From: a virus
Virus record (IMG/VR): IMGVR_UViG_3300042868_010462
Location: 1-64,000 of that record
Strand: one strand, 5' to 3'
DNA: 64,000 bases
Shown: positions 16,352 through 41,783 of the stretch, piece after piece
Position numbering within the stretch: the first letter of the stretch is position 1
How the letters are laid out: each line of letters opens with the position of its first letter
The notes under the pieces: model-generated
Databases searched by the model: none
What the model was told of the DNA's origin: nothing
The model's input: the letters and a program-made list of their open reading frames with translations, nothing else
Translations under genes and position numbers: made by a program

Positions 16352-17110
16352 ATGGACATTGAAACTGAAAAATTTATAATAGAGGAATATAAAAAAGGGT
16401 TGGGTTCTGTAATGATTTCACGTAAAGTGGGGTTATCTAAACCTACGATATTAGCTGTAATAAAAAAACACAAACTAACGAGGTATAAAGATAGATGTAA
16501 ATGTTTAAAAATAAAAGAAGTTGGTGACAAATTTACATTATCATGGACGTGTAAGATGTGTAAAAACGAATTCCAAAAAACCTCGAAAAATAAATCCGTA
16601 TTGTGTCGTAATTATTACAACTCAATAAAAAAAAGTAGTAATTGTAAATCTTGTAGTTTATTATTACAGAGAGGTAAAGGAAATCCTTTTTATGGGAAAA
16701 AACATAGTAAACAAACACTCGATTTAATTTCCAAAAAAATATCTGAAAATCCACCAAAACAAAGTTGTGTGTCTAAATTGGAAAAAAAATTGTTGAGTGA
16801 AATTAAAAATAGGGGAATAGATGCTAAAGGAACTGTGTCTATTGATAGATTTATATGTGATATTTTTATTGAAAAATACAATTTAATTATTGAATTTTAT
16901 GGTGATTATTGGCATTGTAATCCCAAAAAATATAAATCTGATTATTTTCACCCGCACAAAAAAAAGACAGCAAAAGAAATATGGGACGAGGATAAACTAA
17001 GAATTGATTATTTGAAAAAAATGGGTTATAATTTAGAAGTTATCTGGGAACGTGAATTCTCAGATGATAAAAAATTAAACAAAATTATTAAAAAATATGT
17101 CAAAAATTAG
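16352..17110 (+). CDS. free-standing homing endonuclease, Vsr/EDxHD(DUF559)-like, with HTH, Zn-binding and NUMOD3 modules
   Basis: N-terminal HTH, CKMC/CKSC, GKGNPFYGKKHS (NUMOD3) and CDIF..IIEFYGDYWH..EDKLR..GYNLEVIWE. ATG at 16352 preferred over the track start. Confidence 0.8.
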   Translation: MDIETEKFIIEEYKKGLGSVMISRKVGLSKPTILAVIKKHKLTRYKDRCKCLKIKEVGDKFTLSWTCKMCKNEFQKTSKNKSVLCRNYYNSIKKSSNCKSCSLLLQRGKGNPFYGKKHSKQTLDLISKKISENPPKQSCVSKLEKKLLSEIKNRGIDAKGTVSIDRFICDIFIEKYNLIIEFYGDYWHCNPKKYKSDYFHPHKKKTAKEIWDEDKLRIDYLKKMGYNLEVIWEREFSDDKKLNKIIKKYVKN

Positions 17111-18311
17111 AGTTCTAGTAACCCCCTCAGACACGACCGGAGTTGGAAAATTCAGAAGTGTAGACCCCCATGTAATGTTACAAAATATGTATCCAGATGA
17201 CTTCCACGTGGATATTGATTATCAACCTAGAATTAATGATGTAAATTATTGGAAACAATATCAAATTGTTCATATACATAGGAATATTGGTAATAGTTAC
17301 GAACATACACCAAGTATTATTAATTTTTTGAAATCAATAGGTATTGTTGTTATTGTAGATTTGGATGATTATTGGTTACCAGGAAAGGAGCACCCAATTC
17401 ATACATTGATTGTACAAGACAAAATCCATGAGAAAATTATGGCAAATTTAAAAGTTGCAAGTTATGTTACTACAACTACAAATATCTTTGCTGATGAAAT
17501 CAAAAAATTAAATAGAAATGTTGTCATTTTCCCAAATGCAATCGACCCAACTGAAAGTCAATTTAAACAACCTACTGAGAAATCAGATAGAATAAGAATT
17601 GGTTGGTTAGGTGGTTCATCTCACTTACATGACTTGAAATTGTTAGAGGGATTTGTCTCAAAGAATATATCTTTGAAGGATAAGGTACAATATGTGTTGT
17701 GTGGTTTTGATACAAGAGGTACAATTACTGAAATAAACCAACAAACAGGTGAAAAGAAACAAAGACCAATCAACCCTGACGAAACAGTTTGGGCGAGATA
17801 TGAAGAAATTTTCACGAATAAATATGGTACAATTGATGATAACTACAAACAATTTTTACTTCAGTTTAAAGAAGAAGAATACCCAAATATAAGTGATTTA
17901 CCATATAGACGAGTTTGGACTAAACCAATCAATACTTATGCAACTAACTATTCAAAGTTTGATATATCAATGGCACCAATCAAAAACCATATATTCAATA
18001 GAGTAAAATCTCAACTGAAAGTTATTGAGGCTGGTTTTTATAAAAAAGCATTAATTGCATCTGAAGTAGGACCTTATACAATTGACCTCAAACACGCTTT
18101 AAGTTTTGGTAATTTTACTGATGGAAATGCTTTGTTAGTTAAGGAAGAAAGAAATCATAGTGATTGGGCAAAAAATATTAAATTTCTTGTAAATAATCCG
18201 AATTTAATCGTAGATTTGGGTGAGAGATTATATGAGTCAGTCAAAGACAAATATGATTTAAGAAATGTTACAAGAGATAGAGCTCAATGGTACAAATCAC
18301 TAATTAAATAA
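17097..18311 (+). CDS. GT-B (GT4-like) glycosyltransferase
   Basis: DLDDYW, FPNAID, RIGWLGGSSH..DL and DISMAPI..FNRVKSQLKVIEAG..IASEVGPY. Confidence 0.8.
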   Translation: MSKIRVLVTPSDTTGVGKFRSVDPHVMLQNMYPDDFHVDIDYQPRINDVNYWKQYQIVHIHRNIGNSYEHTPSIINFLKSIGIVVIVDLDDYWLPGKEHPIHTLIVQDKIHEKIMANLKVASYVTTTTNIFADEIKKLNRNVVIFPNAIDPTESQFKQPTEKSDRIRIGWLGGSSHLHDLKLLEGFVSKNISLKDKVQYVLCGFDTRGTITEINQQTGEKKQRPINPDETVWARYEEIFTNKYGTIDDNYKQFLLQFKEEEYPNISDLPYRRVWTKPINTYATNYSKFDISMAPIKNHIFNRVKSQLKVIEAGFYKKALIASEVGPYTIDLKHALSFGNFTDGNALLVKEERNHSDWAKNIKFLVNNPNLIVDLGERLYESVKDKYDLRNVTRDRAQWYKSLIK

Positions 18312-18317
18312 AAATAT

Positions 18318-39919: not shown

Positions 39920-40978
39920 ATGAATTCTGAACAAATACAAAAAGTAGAACAATCAATTAAAAACTTAAAAGATAAAAATTCTAAAATTTATCTATTAGTA
40001 CAAGACACCAAAGGTAATGCAAAAGCTTCGGTAGCATACATCTATAATATGGGTTTAGCATTAATGGAAGATGGATTTAACGTCATAATGTTACACGAAA
40101 AAAATGATTACTATGGTGTAGATTCTTGGTTAGGTGAGGAATATATGAAAATACCACATACCTTTATCGAGGGTCAAAATTTAGGTGTTACCCCTGAGGA
40201 TTTCATTGTTATTCCAGAAATCTACGGATTTGTGATGGAACAAATAACTAAATTACCTTGTGGAAAAATTGTTTTAACTCAAGCATATGACCACATTTTA
40301 GAAACCTTACAACCTGGTCAATCTTGGTCACAATTAGGTTTTTATAAATGTATTACTACGTCAAATATGGTTAAAGAATATTTGGAAAATACAATGAGAG
40401 GTATTTCTTATGACGTATTAGAACCATTTATTTCTGAAAGTTTTACAAAACAAAAATTACCAAACAAACCAATCGTAGCAGTTCACACTAGAGACCAAAG
40501 AGATACCTTAAACTTAATTAAAAGTTTCTATCTAAAATTCCCACAATATAGATGGGTCACATTCAAAGATATGAGAGGACTAAGTATAGAACAATTCGCT
40601 GATGAGTTAAAAAATTGTTTCATTTCTGTTTGGGTTGATGAAACAAGTTCATATGGTACTTTTCCATTAGAAAGTATGAAAACAAATATACCTGTCATTG
40701 GATTAGCTCCAAATATAGTACCTGAATGGATGAATGAAGATAACGGACTATGGATTAATAACAAAACTCAAATGGTTGATTATTTGGCTGATTATATCCA
40801 AAATTGGTTAGAAGATAATACCAATCCAAAAATAATTACCGAGATGGAAAAAACTGTGGAAAGTTTACCAACTAAGGATAATTTCTATAAAAAGGTTAAA
40901 GAATTATTTAACGACTATGTGGAAAAAAGAGCCATAACTTTTGAAGAACAATTAAACAAATTACAAGAAGTAGAATAA
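39920..40978 (+). CDS. GT-B-like glycosyltransferase
   Basis: FIVIPE, and the C-terminal SSYGTFPLESM..PVIG donor-binding-like motif. Confidence 0.6.
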   Translation: MNSEQIQKVEQSIKNLKDKNSKIYLLVQDTKGNAKASVAYIYNMGLALMEDGFNVIMLHEKNDYYGVDSWLGEEYMKIPHTFIEGQNLGVTPEDFIVIPEIYGFVMEQITKLPCGKIVLTQAYDHILETLQPGQSWSQLGFYKCITTSNMVKEYLENTMRGISYDVLEPFISESFTKQKLPNKPIVAVHTRDQRDTLNLIKSFYLKFPQYRWVTFKDMRGLSIEQFADELKNCFISVWVDETSSYGTFPLESMKTNIPVIGLAPNIVPEWMNEDNGLWINNKTQMVDYLADYIQNWLEDNTNPKIITEMEKTVESLPTKDNFYKKVKELFNDYVEKRAITFEEQLNKLQEVE

Positions 40979-40979
40979 T

Positions 40980-41783
40980 ATGGAAAAATTTAATGTATCA
41001 GTAATATTACCAATAAAGTCAGGGTCAGCATTCGATTTTGATGAATATTTTGTAAAAGCAATTACGTCCCTAAAAGAACAAAAAACACAAATTAATGAAC
41101 TAATAATTGTTCATACCGATGAAACAAAATTAATTGAGGTTTTGGATGATTATGATTTCGGTGACCTAAATGTTAAAAAAATTAAGTGGAGCAACGAACC
41201 TAATTTTTGTAACCAAGTAAACTTGGGTATAACTGAAGCAAGTTCCGAATGGGTTTCAATTTTCGAATTTGATGACGAATACTCCAAAATTTGGTTTGAC
41301 AACGTTGAAAGATATTCTTCAGTTTACAATGACGTAGATATTTTTTTACCAATTGTTGTCGATACTGATGAAAAAGGAATGTTTGTCGGATTCACAAATG
41401 AAGCGACATTTGCATTAAATATTTCAAGTGAAATAGGTTTGTTGACAAACGAAGTTTTACAACAATATCAGAATTTTCAAATTTCAGGTATGGTTATTAA
41501 AAAATCAGTTTTTGAAAATACAGGTTTATTTAAAGGTACGTTCAAACTTACTTTTGGGTATGAGTTTTTACTCAGAGCATCTCATTATGGTTTAAAAATT
41601 ATGTCCCTTCCTAAAATAGGTTACAAACATACCAATTTTAGACCAGGTTCTATTTTTTGGAATTACAAAAATGGTGATACTCAACTTAAACCTGAAGAGG
41701 TCAAATTTTGGATTGAGAGTGCAAAAAAAGAATATTTCTTCACTAGTGATAGAAAAATAAAGTATGAAGGACAAACAAATTAA
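40980..41783 (+). CDS. GT2-like glycosyltransferase
   Basis: VSVILPI, NLGI..SEWVSIFEFDDEY and EFLLR. Confidence 0.7.
   Translation: MEKFNVSVILPIKSGSAFDFDEYFVKAITSLKEQKTQINELIIVHTDETKLIEVLDDYDFGDLNVKKIKWSNEPNFCNQVNLGITEASSEWVSIFEFDDEYSKIWFDNVERYSSVYNDVDIFLPIVVDTDEKGMFVGFTNEATFALNISSEIGLLTNEVLQQYQNFQISGMVIKKSVFENTGLFKGTFKLTFGYEFLLRASHYGLKIMSLPKIGYKHTNFRPGSIFWNYKNGDTQLKPEEVKFWIESAKKEYFFTSDRKIKYEGQTN

Follow-up and report, generated by a model that had tools for sequence, protein, structure and literature searches.

Introduction

Chloroviruses of the PBCV-1 type encode their own soluble glycosyltransferases (GTs), gmd and a GDP-fucose synthase, and sugar O-methyltransferases, with a conserved core and strain-variable decorations. 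They are eukaryotic viruses whose glycans are N-linked to the major capsid protein, and virion glycans are the demonstrated product of such soluble, virus-encoded sets of GTs with gmd/fcl and methyltransferases. The only experimentally shown precedent in a phage is, to my knowledge, virion glycosylation by mycobacteriophages. According to Freeman et al. (2023), as cited in PMC12619734 and PMC12801897, cytoplasmic modification by soluble mycobacteriophage GTs affects structural proteins of the phage itself; in those accounts the systems consist of 1–3 GT genes lying among capsid and tail genes, and C-terminal extensions are modified. GT-rich islands have already been published for cyanophages (the "LPS" or cell-wall clusters of the cyanomyoviruses P-SSM2, S-SM2, S-CAM7, S-SCSM1 and S-SCSM2R) and for pelagimyophages (a GT-rich host-recognition cluster). 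The published interpretation of these comparable islands is remodelling of the host envelope, both in T4-like cyanophages (PMC12801897) and in pelagimyophages (PMC7029224).

The locus considered here, at 17097–41783, lies in a window consisting of the first 64 kb of a 148-kb record, which is approximately 50% complete. The record encodes MCP, portal and TerL and so comes from a phage, one that is large, uncultured, from freshwater and of the T4-like jumbo type, with complete relatives of 261–321 kb. Since only about half of the genome is present, gene absences were checked again in complete relatives. Single genes are designated by their start, and features are on the + strand unless stated otherwise.

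Like the cyanomyo- and pelagimyophages, this phage combines a T4-like aquatic myovirus backbone with a hypervariable region containing GT2, GT10, GT11, GT25 and NDP-sugar epimerases/dehydratases (PMC12801897, PMC7029224). It differs from them in belonging to a freshwater jumbo lineage (261–321 kb), in the fixed dut–phoH site of the region within an early-type operon rather than among tail-fibre genes, in the three or four lineage-wide core GTs that frame the locus, and in the presence of a transketolase sugar cassette. The GT11 shares 31–33% identity with its cyanophage counterparts, of which the one in S-SM2 likewise adjoins a GT25. The locus has 15 GT genes; for a marine phage, 13 have been described as possibly the highest number known (PMC12801897). 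The gene-level parallels with chloroviruses tested here extend to soluble GTs, gmd/fcl, methyltransferases and a conserved core joined to a variable part, but the variable part is in this case one contiguous swappable cassette. In contrast to the mycobacteriophage systems, the 15 GTs of the locus belong to an early-type operon, with internal Pro/Thr (PT) tracts as the candidate acceptors.

Gene Content of the Locus

The initial annotation described 17097–41783 as a glycan factory. The GTs, methyltransferases, gmd and fcl that it listed are borne out by ORFs, Pfam, PHROGs, NCBIfam and Atlas: the region holds 15 GT genes with 16 GT domains (four of them recognized by weak or structural evidence), representing at least eight GT families, as well as 4 methyltransferase-like genes and gmd/fcl, in all about 25 glycan genes, every one soluble. 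The list overlooked a split transketolase/reductase cassette, and the description fits most but not all of the region, which also contains a backbone exonuclease, a split dUTPase, phoH and two genes of unknown function. The tight coupling that had been noted is evident, in that most gene junctions overlap by 1–28 nt or lie less than 20 nt apart. Paralogues within the window are not recent duplicates.

Conservation was assessed by counting the occurrences of each gene across 160 related loci. GTs 17097, 39920 and 40980 are near-universal, and GT 20915 is also common. The first of these (17097..18311; 109 loci) is a GT4-like retaining enzyme of GT-B fold, matching phrog_7162 (E = 5e-44), and its predicted structure (AF2 pLDDT 87) has GlgM, PglA, BshA and MshA as its best Foldseek matches. 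The second (39920..40978; 124 loci) is a compact GT-B of the Agt/AmGGT type, from a family with at least 4387 protein clusters in metagenomes. Its profile matches AmGGT (PDB 8xsg) with an E-value of 9e-14, as against 0.01 for the next match, a solved GT4, and its model (AF2 pLDDT 87) aligns with 8xsg in Foldseek at TM 0.73–0.75 and rmsd 3.8, at an identity of only about 19–20%. AmGGT is the only clear solved relative. Agt belongs to the NGT/Agt system by which Actinobacillus pleuropneumoniae N-glycosylates proteins in its cytoplasm, but NGT (GT41) is absent from the phage record and four relatives, and a search for initiating protein GTs of known types found none. The third (40980..41783; 116 loci) is a GT2 of GT-A fold (PF00535), whose solved relatives, all weak PDB matches, are SunS, GalT1 and GmaR only, that is, peptide/protein GT2s. 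The semi-core gene is a double GT2 (20915..22429; Pfam Glyco_tranf_2_5 and Glycos_transf_2), present in 75 of the 160 loci and in 43 of 45 islands.

The backbone genes in the region are a 3'-5' exonuclease that is not a glycan gene (18318..19031; PF10108; 118 loci), the split dUTPase (19031..20918; Pfam dUTPase N/C and Hint/intein), made of intein halves with an intervening nuclease ORF, and phoH with two conserved small genes (38277..39918; PF02562; 125–129 loci). The dUTPase forms the left edge of a variable interval and the phoH group its right edge.

Within the interval, a first variable block (22426..25849; Pfam) comprises GT2 (22426), GT25 (22977), GT11 (23615; E = 3e-29), a firm FkbM methyltransferase (24427) and GT10 (24968), each found in just 12–34 of the 160 loci. 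A second (29394..36354; Pfam and Atlas) comprises a GT32-type gene with DXD (29394), a GT47/RXYLT1-like gene (30140), another GT10 (30946), another firm FkbM methyltransferase (31841), another GT25 (32455), weak RXYLT1-like (33110), GT11-like (33903; E = 6e-5; probable true start 33969) and FkbM-like (34703) genes, and a GT-B assigned by Atlas structure (35332; TM 0.85–0.91). Five to six genes of the second block are syntenic, at 45–60% identity, in a contig from another phage that has 10 genes syntenic with the island, and the Atlas neighbours of island proteins are mostly viral. The genes of the island are part of a phage-borne pool.

A sugar-nucleotide cassette (25850..29373; Pfam, NCBIfam and Atlas) separates the two blocks. 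It consists of a split transketolase (N at 25850, pyr+C at 26608), an NDP-sugar SDR (27471) and a class I methyltransferase-like protein (28462), the last an Atlas lead to a class I SAM methyltransferase. These four genes are also adjacent in Omnitrophota, Fibrobacterota, Syntrophaceae, Actinomycetota and other genomes, and the bacterial copies often accompany gmd and an fcl-like SDR. In the present locus, gmd (GDP-mannose 4,6-dehydratase; PF16363, 390 bits; 30 of the 160 loci) and an fcl-like GDP-fucose synthase gene (NF047922, GDPFucSynFcl, 227 bits, which is under NCBI's cut-off) lie at 36391..38266. With these two genes and the methyltransferases, the locus encodes both a supply of GDP-fucose and sugar methylation, as had been proposed.

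Exchange of Cassettes and Absence of Export Genes

Related loci have a dut–phoH interval of between 14 bp and 12 kb; here it measures 17.4 kb, the largest observed. Loci with 99.7% identical backbones have almost no interval genes in common, whereas those with 82% identical backbones can have all of them in common. Because interval content is decoupled in this way from backbone identity, the cassettes are exchanged between phages. Some relatives do without the island altogether, and one of these (L063) keeps all three core GTs. The locus is made up of three or four kept GTs and a swappable remainder, like a bacterial serotype locus: it resembles those for O-antigen and capsule in its fixed flanks and recombination-exchanged centre, in its enzyme families and low G+C, and in the occurrence of near-identical backbones with different cassettes. 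Unlike O-antigen and capsule loci, the 45 islands hold no Wzx, Wzy, Wzz, ABC transporter or priming transferase, and the carrier is a virulent-type phage.

A hydrophobicity check found no convincing hydrophobic segment in any protein of the cluster, confirming the claim that obvious membrane anchors are lacking. In the whole 148-kb record every ORF has fewer than four such segments, and none of 331 ORFs across the 45 different islands has more than two. The complete 321-kb relative G001 has four ORFs only with 3–4 segments, none matching a glycan-export family, and the Bac_transf priming GT is absent from four near-complete relatives. The earlier observation that flippase, polymerase, exporter and priming transferase are missing thus holds in all 331 island ORFs and in the complete genome of G001. 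A soluble pathway is also compatible with remodelling of host glycolipids, since LOS-type and Und-PP-linked glycans also use soluble GTs and host export.

Expression and Candidate Acceptors

A terminator-like hairpin with a T-run (16244..16289; CCCCACA...TGTGGGG, read from the sequence) closes the upstream unit, and a strict pattern finds a GC hairpin with a T-run at the equivalent site of 11 among 34 relatives, while inspection by eye shows it in more. A sigma-70-type promoter (16309..16337; TTGACA-N17-TAATAT) heads a long + strand array, and in 23 of the 34 relatives a -35/-10 pair precedes the 17097 homologue by at most 130 nt. No + strand terminator was found between this promoter and 49465, and within the locus there are just two copies of the late-type TATTTATA motif. 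By these signals, the locus stands at the head of an early-type operon and is not part of the late structural operons. An optional insert between the promoter and the first GT encodes a NUMOD3/REase-like homing endonuclease (16346..17110; Pfam), present in just 10 of the 160 loci.

Candidate acceptors are encoded on the - strand. They are a fibre-like protein with two Pro/Thr tracts of about 25 and 90 aa (972..2225), a protein whose N-terminal part carries a (TPTITPTPSI)n tract (7622..8494), and two adjacent structural-type proteins with PT tracts of about 170 and 25 aa (10476..13609), to which phrog_8510 ("virion structural protein") is a weak match. PT tracts of 30–481 aa occur at the 10476..13609 position in nearly all relatives with full flanks, the island-less L063 has one of 156 aa at the neighbouring fibre gene, and throughout the lineage PT tracts and core GTs are found together. 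This evidence, like the kinship of a core GT to Agt/AmGGT, is circumstantial; virion proteins, plausibly at their PT tracts, are the most likely candidate for glycan acceptor.

Discussion

The best reading of the locus, which I hold tentatively and at a little under an even chance, is that it glycosylates the phage's own proteins. A serious if somewhat doubtful possibility is that the soluble GTs instead act early on lipid-linked host acceptors at the inner membrane face (lipid A-core/LOS, or Und-PP-linked precursors of O-antigen, capsule or protein O-glycans), the products being exported by host machinery. Masking of receptors would then exclude superinfecting phages or keep progeny off debris, and cassette swapping would follow the surface-glycan diversity of host strains. 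This is how the cyanophage and pelagimyophage islands have been read, and the cultured-phage homologues of the GT11 sit in those cyanophage clusters. Moreover, GT25, GT10, GT11, GT32 and GT8 are families typical of LOS/LPS synthesis, and soluble GTs also build LOS and Und-PP-linked glycans, which then leave the cytoplasm through MsbA, Wzx or ABC systems of the host. The genes are expressed in the early, sigma-70 manner, and their hypervariability between strains is serotype-like. Proven phage seroconversion modules, however, include membrane components (Gtr, Oac, Wzy), unlike these islands, in which none of the 331 ORFs is such a component, nor is any in the complete genome. I know of no demonstrated case of envelope remodelling by a virulent phage. 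The three or four GTs kept across a lineage of at least 4387 protein clusters would need one invariant host acceptor, and the island genes are closest to other phage genes. Full O-antigen remodelling in lytic infection has been argued to be likely futile, and lytic-cycle replacement of the complete surface was judged unlikely (PMC11990801).

Less probable still is a soluble product apart from the virion, either a free methylated oligo- or polysaccharide, a small molecule, or modified host cytoplasmic proteins, serving host takeover. Mycobacterial methylmannose and methylglucose polysaccharides are models for a free, cytoplasmic, methylated polysaccharide, and the mannosyltransferase of the methylmannose polysaccharide ranks 6 (17097) and 3 (39920) among structural matches. 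The pathway is all soluble, rich in methyltransferases and expressed early, and AmGGT, the closest solved relative of 39920, extends free oligosaccharides rather than glycopeptides (PMC12159676), which counts against a protein acceptor. Nevertheless, fifteen GTs of at least eight families suggest a complex heteroglycan rather than a homopolymer, and a cytoplasmic product fits poorly with the strong diversifying selection implied by swapping between 99.7% identical backbones. Hypermodification of DNA, in which GTs would glycosylate modified bases of the phage genome in evasion of restriction, was the alternative offered by the initial annotation and now seems very improbable. GT 17097 does share an operon with the exonuclease and dUTPase, and glycans of several sugars can occur on phage DNA (Pyle et al. 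2024, as cited in PMC12619734). But while the half-genome record has no gene of the thymidylate synthase family, complete relatives have exactly one each (TIGR03284, 303–311 bits vs. a cut-off of 108), and this single, true ThyA leaves no candidate for a dCMP/dUMP hydroxymethylase, making sugar modification of DNA unlikely; dUTPase together with ThyA points to ordinary thymidine. The fold of GT 17097 is that of GT4 and not of T4 Agt/Bgt, fucosyl-, GT25- and GT47-type enzymes and O-methyltransferases are without known precedent on DNA, and the island is dispensable in some relatives.

Glycosylation of the phage's own proteins is favoured, by way of core GT 39920, by the finding that Agt extends glucose already linked to protein, and does so in the cytoplasm (PMC12159676). 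Among the points against it are that the operon is of early type and includes nucleotide-metabolism genes, unlike the setting of mycobacteriophage GTs among structural genes, and that the fibres of aquatic phages often contain PT tracts as flexible linkers, which need no glycosylation. If it is correct, the locus would be a two-tier, wholly cytoplasmic glycan assembly line. In the order of additions that I infer, the conserved soluble GTs 17097, 39920, 40980 and usually 20915, a set that nearly all phages of this very large freshwater lineage possess, would lay down a basal glycan, which would be elaborated by the second tier, a cassette of 0–21 genes between dut and phoH that is swapped by recombination. 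In this phage the second tier would add fucose (gmd/fcl, two GT10 and two GT11), GT25-, GT32- and GT47-type additions and FkbM-type O-methylation, with the transketolase/reductase/methyltransferase cassette perhaps supplying an unusual sugar. Transcription from an early promoter of the host sigma-70 type would have the enzymes ready before the late proteins, and the acceptors would be structural proteins of the phage itself, with the long, mucin-like Pro/Thr tracts of the neighbouring fibre proteins as plausible sites. If all this is true, every phage strain would carry its own glycan coat.

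The phage and its relatives

The locus considered here (17097-41783, + strand) comes from a virus record consisting of a single contig of 147,874 bp (30.6% G+C), which has the window as its first 64 kb and which CheckV judges to be about 50% complete. Going by protein matches, the backbone is that of a T4-like myovirus: the capsid protein (MCP) matches phrog_138 (E 2e-67), the portal phrog_213 and TerL phrog_2, and a tblastn search with the MCP finds T4-like phages. The closest cultured relatives of the MCP are 41-46% identical to it over about half of the protein. Its gene (52857-54725, - strand) encodes 622 aa, to which other T4-like capsid proteins align over 51-56% and in two pieces; the split points to some 250 inserted aa, at roughly residues 100-350, which are rich in Ser, Thr and Gly and include a Cys cluster. 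A 516-aa protein encoded next to the capsid gene (54762-56312, - strand) contains long Asp/Glu/Met repeats of the MDDEDMEDE type and is probably the scaffold.

Near-complete relatives measure 261-321 kb, one of them with terminal repeats, and hundreds of IMG/VR contigs carry the conserved neighbours of the locus. With the cultured MCPs distant as well, this is a jumbo phage from fresh water, as yet uncultured, whose lineage is very abundant. One core protein has at least 4387 relatives at the level of 90% clusters, and a protein identical to the core glycosyltransferase (GT) that starts at 39920 is encoded on a 280-kb contig. No match to the locus as a whole was found by megablast among 50,697 phage records.

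Gene content of the locus

I will refer to genes by their start coordinates. The + strand carries every gene from 13663 to 49986, and within 17097-41783 neighbouring genes overlap by 1-28 nt or are separated by gaps mostly below 20 nt, bearing out the tight coupling described in the initial annotation. The G+C content of the block drops to 25-27%. There are 15 GT genes with 16 GT domains, all on the + strand, in agreement with the earlier estimate of about 15. Pfam identifies a fused double GT2 (20915), two further GT2 (22426, 40980), two GT25 (22977, 32455), two GT11 (23615 strongly, 33903 weakly), two GT10 (24968, 30946), a GT32-type DXD enzyme (29394), two GT47/RXYLT1-like proteins (30140 and, weakly, 33110) and a weak GT1/GT4 match (39920), modelled as a compact GT-B. 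The product of 17097 has no Pfam match; it falls within a PHROG GT family, and its model is a GT-B with GT4 neighbours. The last of the 15 (35332) is counted by its GT-B structural neighbours in the ESM Atlas (TM 0.85-0.91).

Four methyltransferases had been claimed, and two are plain FkbM enzymes by Pfam (24427, 31841); of the others, 34703 is weakly FkbM-like and 28462 only groups with class I SAM methyltransferases in the Atlas. The claimed GDP-fucose pathway is borne out by an unambiguous gmd within 36391-38266 (Pfam, 390 bits) and a gene at 37361 that is fcl-like (NCBIfam, 227 bits). The gene list was right as far as it went, and overlooked a split transketolase (25850 and 26608) and an NDP-sugar SDR (27471), both recognized by Pfam and NCBIfam. 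Five genes (28462, 34703, 35332, 39002, 39649) receive no name from PHROGs, Pfam or NCBIfam, two of which (28462 and 35332) yielded the Atlas leads. Recent internal duplication was considered as the source of the paired GT25, GT11 and FkbM genes, and was rejected when none of these pairs showed significant identity; the GT10 pair is 36% identical over 85 aa.

Also within 17097-41783, on the + strand, are genes that belong to the backbone and not to glycan synthesis: a 3'-5' exonuclease, phoH, two small conserved genes, and a dUTPase split by an intein. The N-part of the dUTPase with the Hint/intein N-half is encoded at 19031-19708, and the intein C-half with the C-part at 20616-20918; the 297-aa nuclease-like ORF between the halves is found in only four of 160 related loci. 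A homing endonuclease of the NUMOD3/REase type (16346-17110), inserted downstream of the early promoter and ahead of the first core GT, occurs in only 10 of the 160.

A conserved core and an exchangeable cassette

Each protein of the window was compared against the same 160 related loci. Three GTs (17097, 39920, 40980), the exonuclease, both halves of the dUTPase, phoH, 39002, 39649, a weakly gp55-like late sigma factor (41783) and the genes downstream of it are present in 109-129 of these loci. The double GT2 (20915) is intermediate, found in 75 related loci. All genes from 22426 to 38266 are patchy or unique. They lie in an interval between the end of dut and the start of phoH that ranges in relatives from 14-16 bp, where there is no island, to 12.1 kb; at 17.4 kb that of the present phage is the largest seen. 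The 321-kb genome of a whole relative (G001) has the same synteny and an island of 8.4 kb.

Counted over the 45 distinct islands there are 331 ORFs, every one on the + strand; they form 158 clusters at 40% identity, and 43 of the 45 islands have the double GT2. A Pfam tally of 148 cluster representatives finds glycan chemistry throughout: sugar methyltransferases of the Methyltransf_24/TylF and FkbM types, GT2, GT8, GT10 and GT11, gmd and epimerases, DegT aminotransferases, hexapeptide acyltransferases, UDP-glucose dehydrogenases and cytidylyltransferases. The island-cluster Jaccard index is only 0.11 for one pair of loci with 99.7% identity in the flanking PhoH and core-GT proteins, and another pair, with only 82% identity in these proteins, has the same eight island clusters. 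The islands turn over rapidly, by cassette exchange. Because the core genes are kept in 109-129 loci, the genes of 22426-38266 are patchy and cassettes are exchanged, the locus is a two-tier structure, a small conserved core of enzymes with, at one constant site, a cassette that can be swapped, much as in the serotype loci of bacteria.

The genes of the islands seem to move from phage to phage. Ten of those in the window have counterparts in L167, at 36-67% identity and in largely the same order. L167, together with L243 and L244, belongs to contig CAZCJR010000003.1 (106 kb, 23-25% G+C), labelled as part of a 'Cellvibrionaceae' MAG, and on the contig lie a gp46-like gene and families of paralogues in the style of phages (many small proteins that start MK.LK.FE). 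Although it is the best 'bacterial' match, L167 was rejected as a host source and is treated as a phage contig mis-binned into the MAG, because of its 24% G+C, its gp46-like gene and its phage-type paralogues. The MAG has no match to the capsid protein of the phage. The transketolase gene was also considered as a pointer to a bacterial donor; none emerges, since its matches, at 36-58% identity, are scattered over many phyla.

The block comprising both halves of the transketolase, the SDR at 27471 and the methyltransferase-like gene at 28462 recurs at 38-58% identity, often with an fcl-like SDR and gmd, in genomes from Omnitrophota, Fibrobacterota, Bacteriovoracaceae, Syntrophaceae, Actinomycetota and gammaproteobacteria. 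The order in bacterial contigs L164, L169-L173 and L177 is (gmd), transketolase N, transketolase C, SDR, fcl-like SDR, methyltransferase-like gene. From the enzyme classes, the block would transfer a two-carbon unit to a GDP-4-keto-6-deoxyhexose, which would then be reduced and methylated. A literature search turned up no paper on such a cassette, and its recurrence suggests an undescribed pathway, widespread in bacteria, to a branched or extended GDP-linked sugar.

Transcription of the locus

Upstream of the locus, TTGACA-N17-TAATAT (16309-16337) comes after a hairpin and T-run (16244-16289), and no + strand terminator is found from there until 49465. The locus shares an operon with the exonuclease, dut and phoH. 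Relatives have a terminator and a promoter of the TTGATA-N17-TATAAT type before their homologue of 17097; the arrangement is visible by eye, and the promoter was found by pattern in 23 of 34. In L008, L020, L124, L146 and other loci, canonical TTGACA/TTGATA-N17-TATAAT sequences follow terminators about 40-90 nt upstream of that homologue. These promoters differ from the Bacteroidota type (TTTG / TAnnTTTG), and start codons lack Shine-Dalgarno sequences.

The octamer TATTTATA occurs 57 times in the whole record, and at 31 of these sites a start on the same strand follows at a distance of 8-60 nt (about 20 nt as a rule); the octamer's reverse complement is so placed at 13 of 57. It precedes terminase and head genes, such as 60972-62735 (TerL), 54762-56312 and 56719-57441, and is probably a late promoter, a candidate put forward on its position relative to genes. 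TATTTATA reads as the complement of the T4 motif TATAAATA, which shows no enrichment before genes. Only two copies of TATTTATA fall within the locus (21351 and 33940), fewer than composition predicts, so late transcription of the locus is unsupported. Late control of the T4 type was rejected on the same count and on the lack of TATAAATA enrichment. Because a terminator and a sigma-70-type promoter lie upstream and TATTTATA is rare inside, the glycan genes look to be early or middle genes, co-transcribed with those of nucleotide metabolism. Early expression would be compatible with enzymes made before the late proteins and equally with early action on the host.

Membrane and export functions

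The initial annotation saw no flippase, polymerase, exporter, priming transferase or membrane anchor, and proposed a prediction of membrane segments. That picture extends to the wider set of genomes. None of the cluster proteins of the locus has a credible membrane segment, and hydrophobic segments number at most three in any ORF of the 148-kb record. Among the 331 island ORFs, none has more than two hydrophobic segments and just one has a clear N-terminal anchor. The 321 kb of G001 contain only four ORFs with 3-4 hydrophobic segments, and neither these nor comparable ORFs of the record match a Pfam flippase, polymerase, ABC-2, GtrA or acyltransferase family. The priming transferase Bac_transf is absent from four near-complete relatives. 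Seroconversion by temperate phages (Gtr, Oac, Wzy), by comparison, employs a GtrA-type flippase, GtrB, a polytopic serotype GT, and acyltransferase-3 or Wzy, none of which is matched in the record, in the island ORFs or in G001.

Possible acceptors of the glycan

Four minus-strand proteins encoded upstream of the locus (972-2225, 7622-8494, 10476-11441 and 11459-13609) have long mucin-like Pro/Thr (PT) tracts, the longest of about 170 aa. In nearly every relative with enough flanking sequence, the homologues of the latter two also have PT tracts, of 30-481 aa, and the island-less relative L063 retains the three core GTs and a PT tract of 156 aa. Tract length shows no clear trend with island size by inspection, in data covering part of the fibre genes only. 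Between the first two PT-tract genes (2238-4954, - strand) are three tandem paralogues of about 300 aa, extremely rich in Gly (the opposite strand reads as poly-Pro) and all ending in GDGLVII(T/S)(C)W, which are probably fibre or decoration proteins.

The core enzyme 39920 has one clear solved relative. A profile search gives AmGGT (8xsg) at E 9e-14, as against 0.01 for the next GT4, and Foldseek aligns its model to 8xsg with TM 0.73-0.75 (rmsd 3.8 A), as compared to TM 0.5-0.6 for other GT4s. It may thus be classed as a predicted Agt-type compact GT4, a family-level likeness at about 20% identity. AmGGT belongs to the Agt family and prefers free oligosaccharides, while the Agt of Actinobacillus pleuropneumoniae elongates glucose on adhesins within a cytoplasmic NGT/Agt system of protein glycosylation (PMC12159676). 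Of such a system the elongating enzyme is matched here, but the initiating one is not: GT41 of the HMW1C/NGT type (PF13844) is absent from the record and from four near-complete relatives. The weak solved relatives of 40980 (E 3e-4 to 0.1) include the peptide S-glycosyltransferase SunS, GalT1, which acts on serine-rich repeats, and the flagellin GT GmaR, a likeness to be taken as a lead.

The only precedents known to have been demonstrated for soluble viral sets of GTs are cases of virion glycosylation. Glycosylation of the phage's own proteins ranks first, if tentatively, because it fits those precedents, the core GTs that travel with conserved PT tracts, the Agt-like enzyme and the phage-borne pool of genes. 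Second comes remodelling of a lipid-linked glycan of the host, a reading I consider possible on the whole rather than probable: it agrees with the families of GT present and with early expression, and glycans of the LOS type need no more than soluble GTs, but a published argument against it is that an attempt to alter O-antigen, so plentiful on the surface, would probably be futile within a lytic cycle (PMC11990801). A soluble acceptor outside the virion is unlikely, and ranks third, ahead of DNA modification.

Hypermodified DNA, the alternative kept in the initial annotation, fares worst and is highly improbable. In T-even phages it takes a dCMP/dUMP hydroxymethylase, a paralogue within the thymidylate-synthase family, and a GT of the Agt/Bgt fold, neither of which was found here. 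The record, at about 50% completeness, lacks both PF00303 (the thymidylate-synthase family) and PF02511 (ThyX). Near-complete relatives have exactly one PF00303 gene each, which by its TIGR03284 score (303-311 bits, cut-off 108) is judged a true ThyA, so there is no candidate hydroxymethylase to provide a glycosylatable base in the record or in these relatives. The relatives' enzymes (L161:274-1368, G001; L162:284-1402, G002) are 364-372 aa long and match ThyA models in two or three separate stretches, which points to some 60-100 inserted aa, the enzyme being canonical in other respects. The GT beside the nucleotide genes, 17097, has the GT4 enzymes GlgM, PglA, BshA and MshA as its top Foldseek matches, and its model resembles these and not the T4 DNA glucosyltransferases (Agt/Bgt folds).

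To return to the phage's own proteins, a more specific version is that the lineage decorates the mucin-like PT tracts in its fibre proteins with a glycan of its own making, whose outer part the recombining, serotype-like cassette would encode. I regard this as possible, with somewhat less assurance than glycosylation of phage proteins as such.

Relation to known systems

GT-rich hypervariable regions have been described in T4-like cyanophages (P-SSM2, S-SCSM1, S-SCSM2R), of which S-SCSM2R has 13 GTs, including GT10, GT11, GT25 and GT2, a total said to be perhaps unsurpassed among marine phages (PMC12801897), and in pelagimyophages (PMC7029224). In both cases the authors proposed, without experiments, that the regions modify the O-chain or surface of the host (PMC12801897, PMC7029224). 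Four core GT orthogroups have been reported from the freshwater jumbo 'moraphages' (PMC12619734). The locus shares with the cyano- and pelagimyophage 'LPS/CWSM' islands a T4-like backbone and a contiguous variable block of GT and nucleotide-sugar genes, and the cyanophage clusters are exactly where the GT11 at 23615 has homologues in cultured phages (S-CAM7, S-SM2, ACG-2014f and B3/B23; 31-33% identity, covering 92% of the protein). No cultured-phage homologue was found for the GT10 at 30946 or the core GT 39920. The pelagimyophage block lies inside a tail-fibre/host-recognition cluster, whereas dut and phoH flank the present one, which is part of a + strand operon of early type, and the fibre-like genes are 7-20 kb away on the opposite strand.

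Autonomous glycosylation of the chlorovirus type likewise combines soluble viral GTs with no membrane-bound assembly genes of its own, and has a viral GDP-fucose pathway and sugar methyltransferases, paralleled here by gmd, the fcl-like gene and two FkbM genes. That type also has its glycan bound covalently to virion proteins, for which the support here is circumstantial: the PT tracts of the lineage, the core GTs that L063 retains and the Agt-like core enzyme 39920. In the mycobacteriophage type, GTs lie among capsid and tail genes and are expressed with them, unlike the early-type operon with exonuclease, dut and phoH. What the locus adds is the fixed dut-phoH site, the early-type operon, a lineage-wide core of enzymes that includes an Agt-like one, quantified cassette swapping, and membrane-free content across 45 islands and one complete genome.

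Of the unexplained sets of 'auxiliary' genes in aquatic phages, islands rich in GTs are one of the commonest, and they have been read, without tests, as modifiers of host LPS. The locus offers a clean test system, with a small conserved core, a candidate acceptor adjoining it and natural cassette variants on near-identical backbones. Should the glycan end up on the surface of the host, a virulent phage would for the first time be seen to remodel that surface on a large scale. Should it be on the virion, particles would have strain-specific sugar coats, and adsorption, grazing, the stickiness of particles and the recognition of phages by hosts would need to be rethought; the islands would also be a rich source of soluble transferases, for fucosyl, galactosyl and methyl groups, that work without membranes. 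If the PT tracts are indeed coated, then near-identical phage genomes would differ in 'glycotype', subject to frequency-dependent selection from hosts, grazers or competing phages, and glycotypes would be the phage counterpart of bacterial O-antigen diversity.
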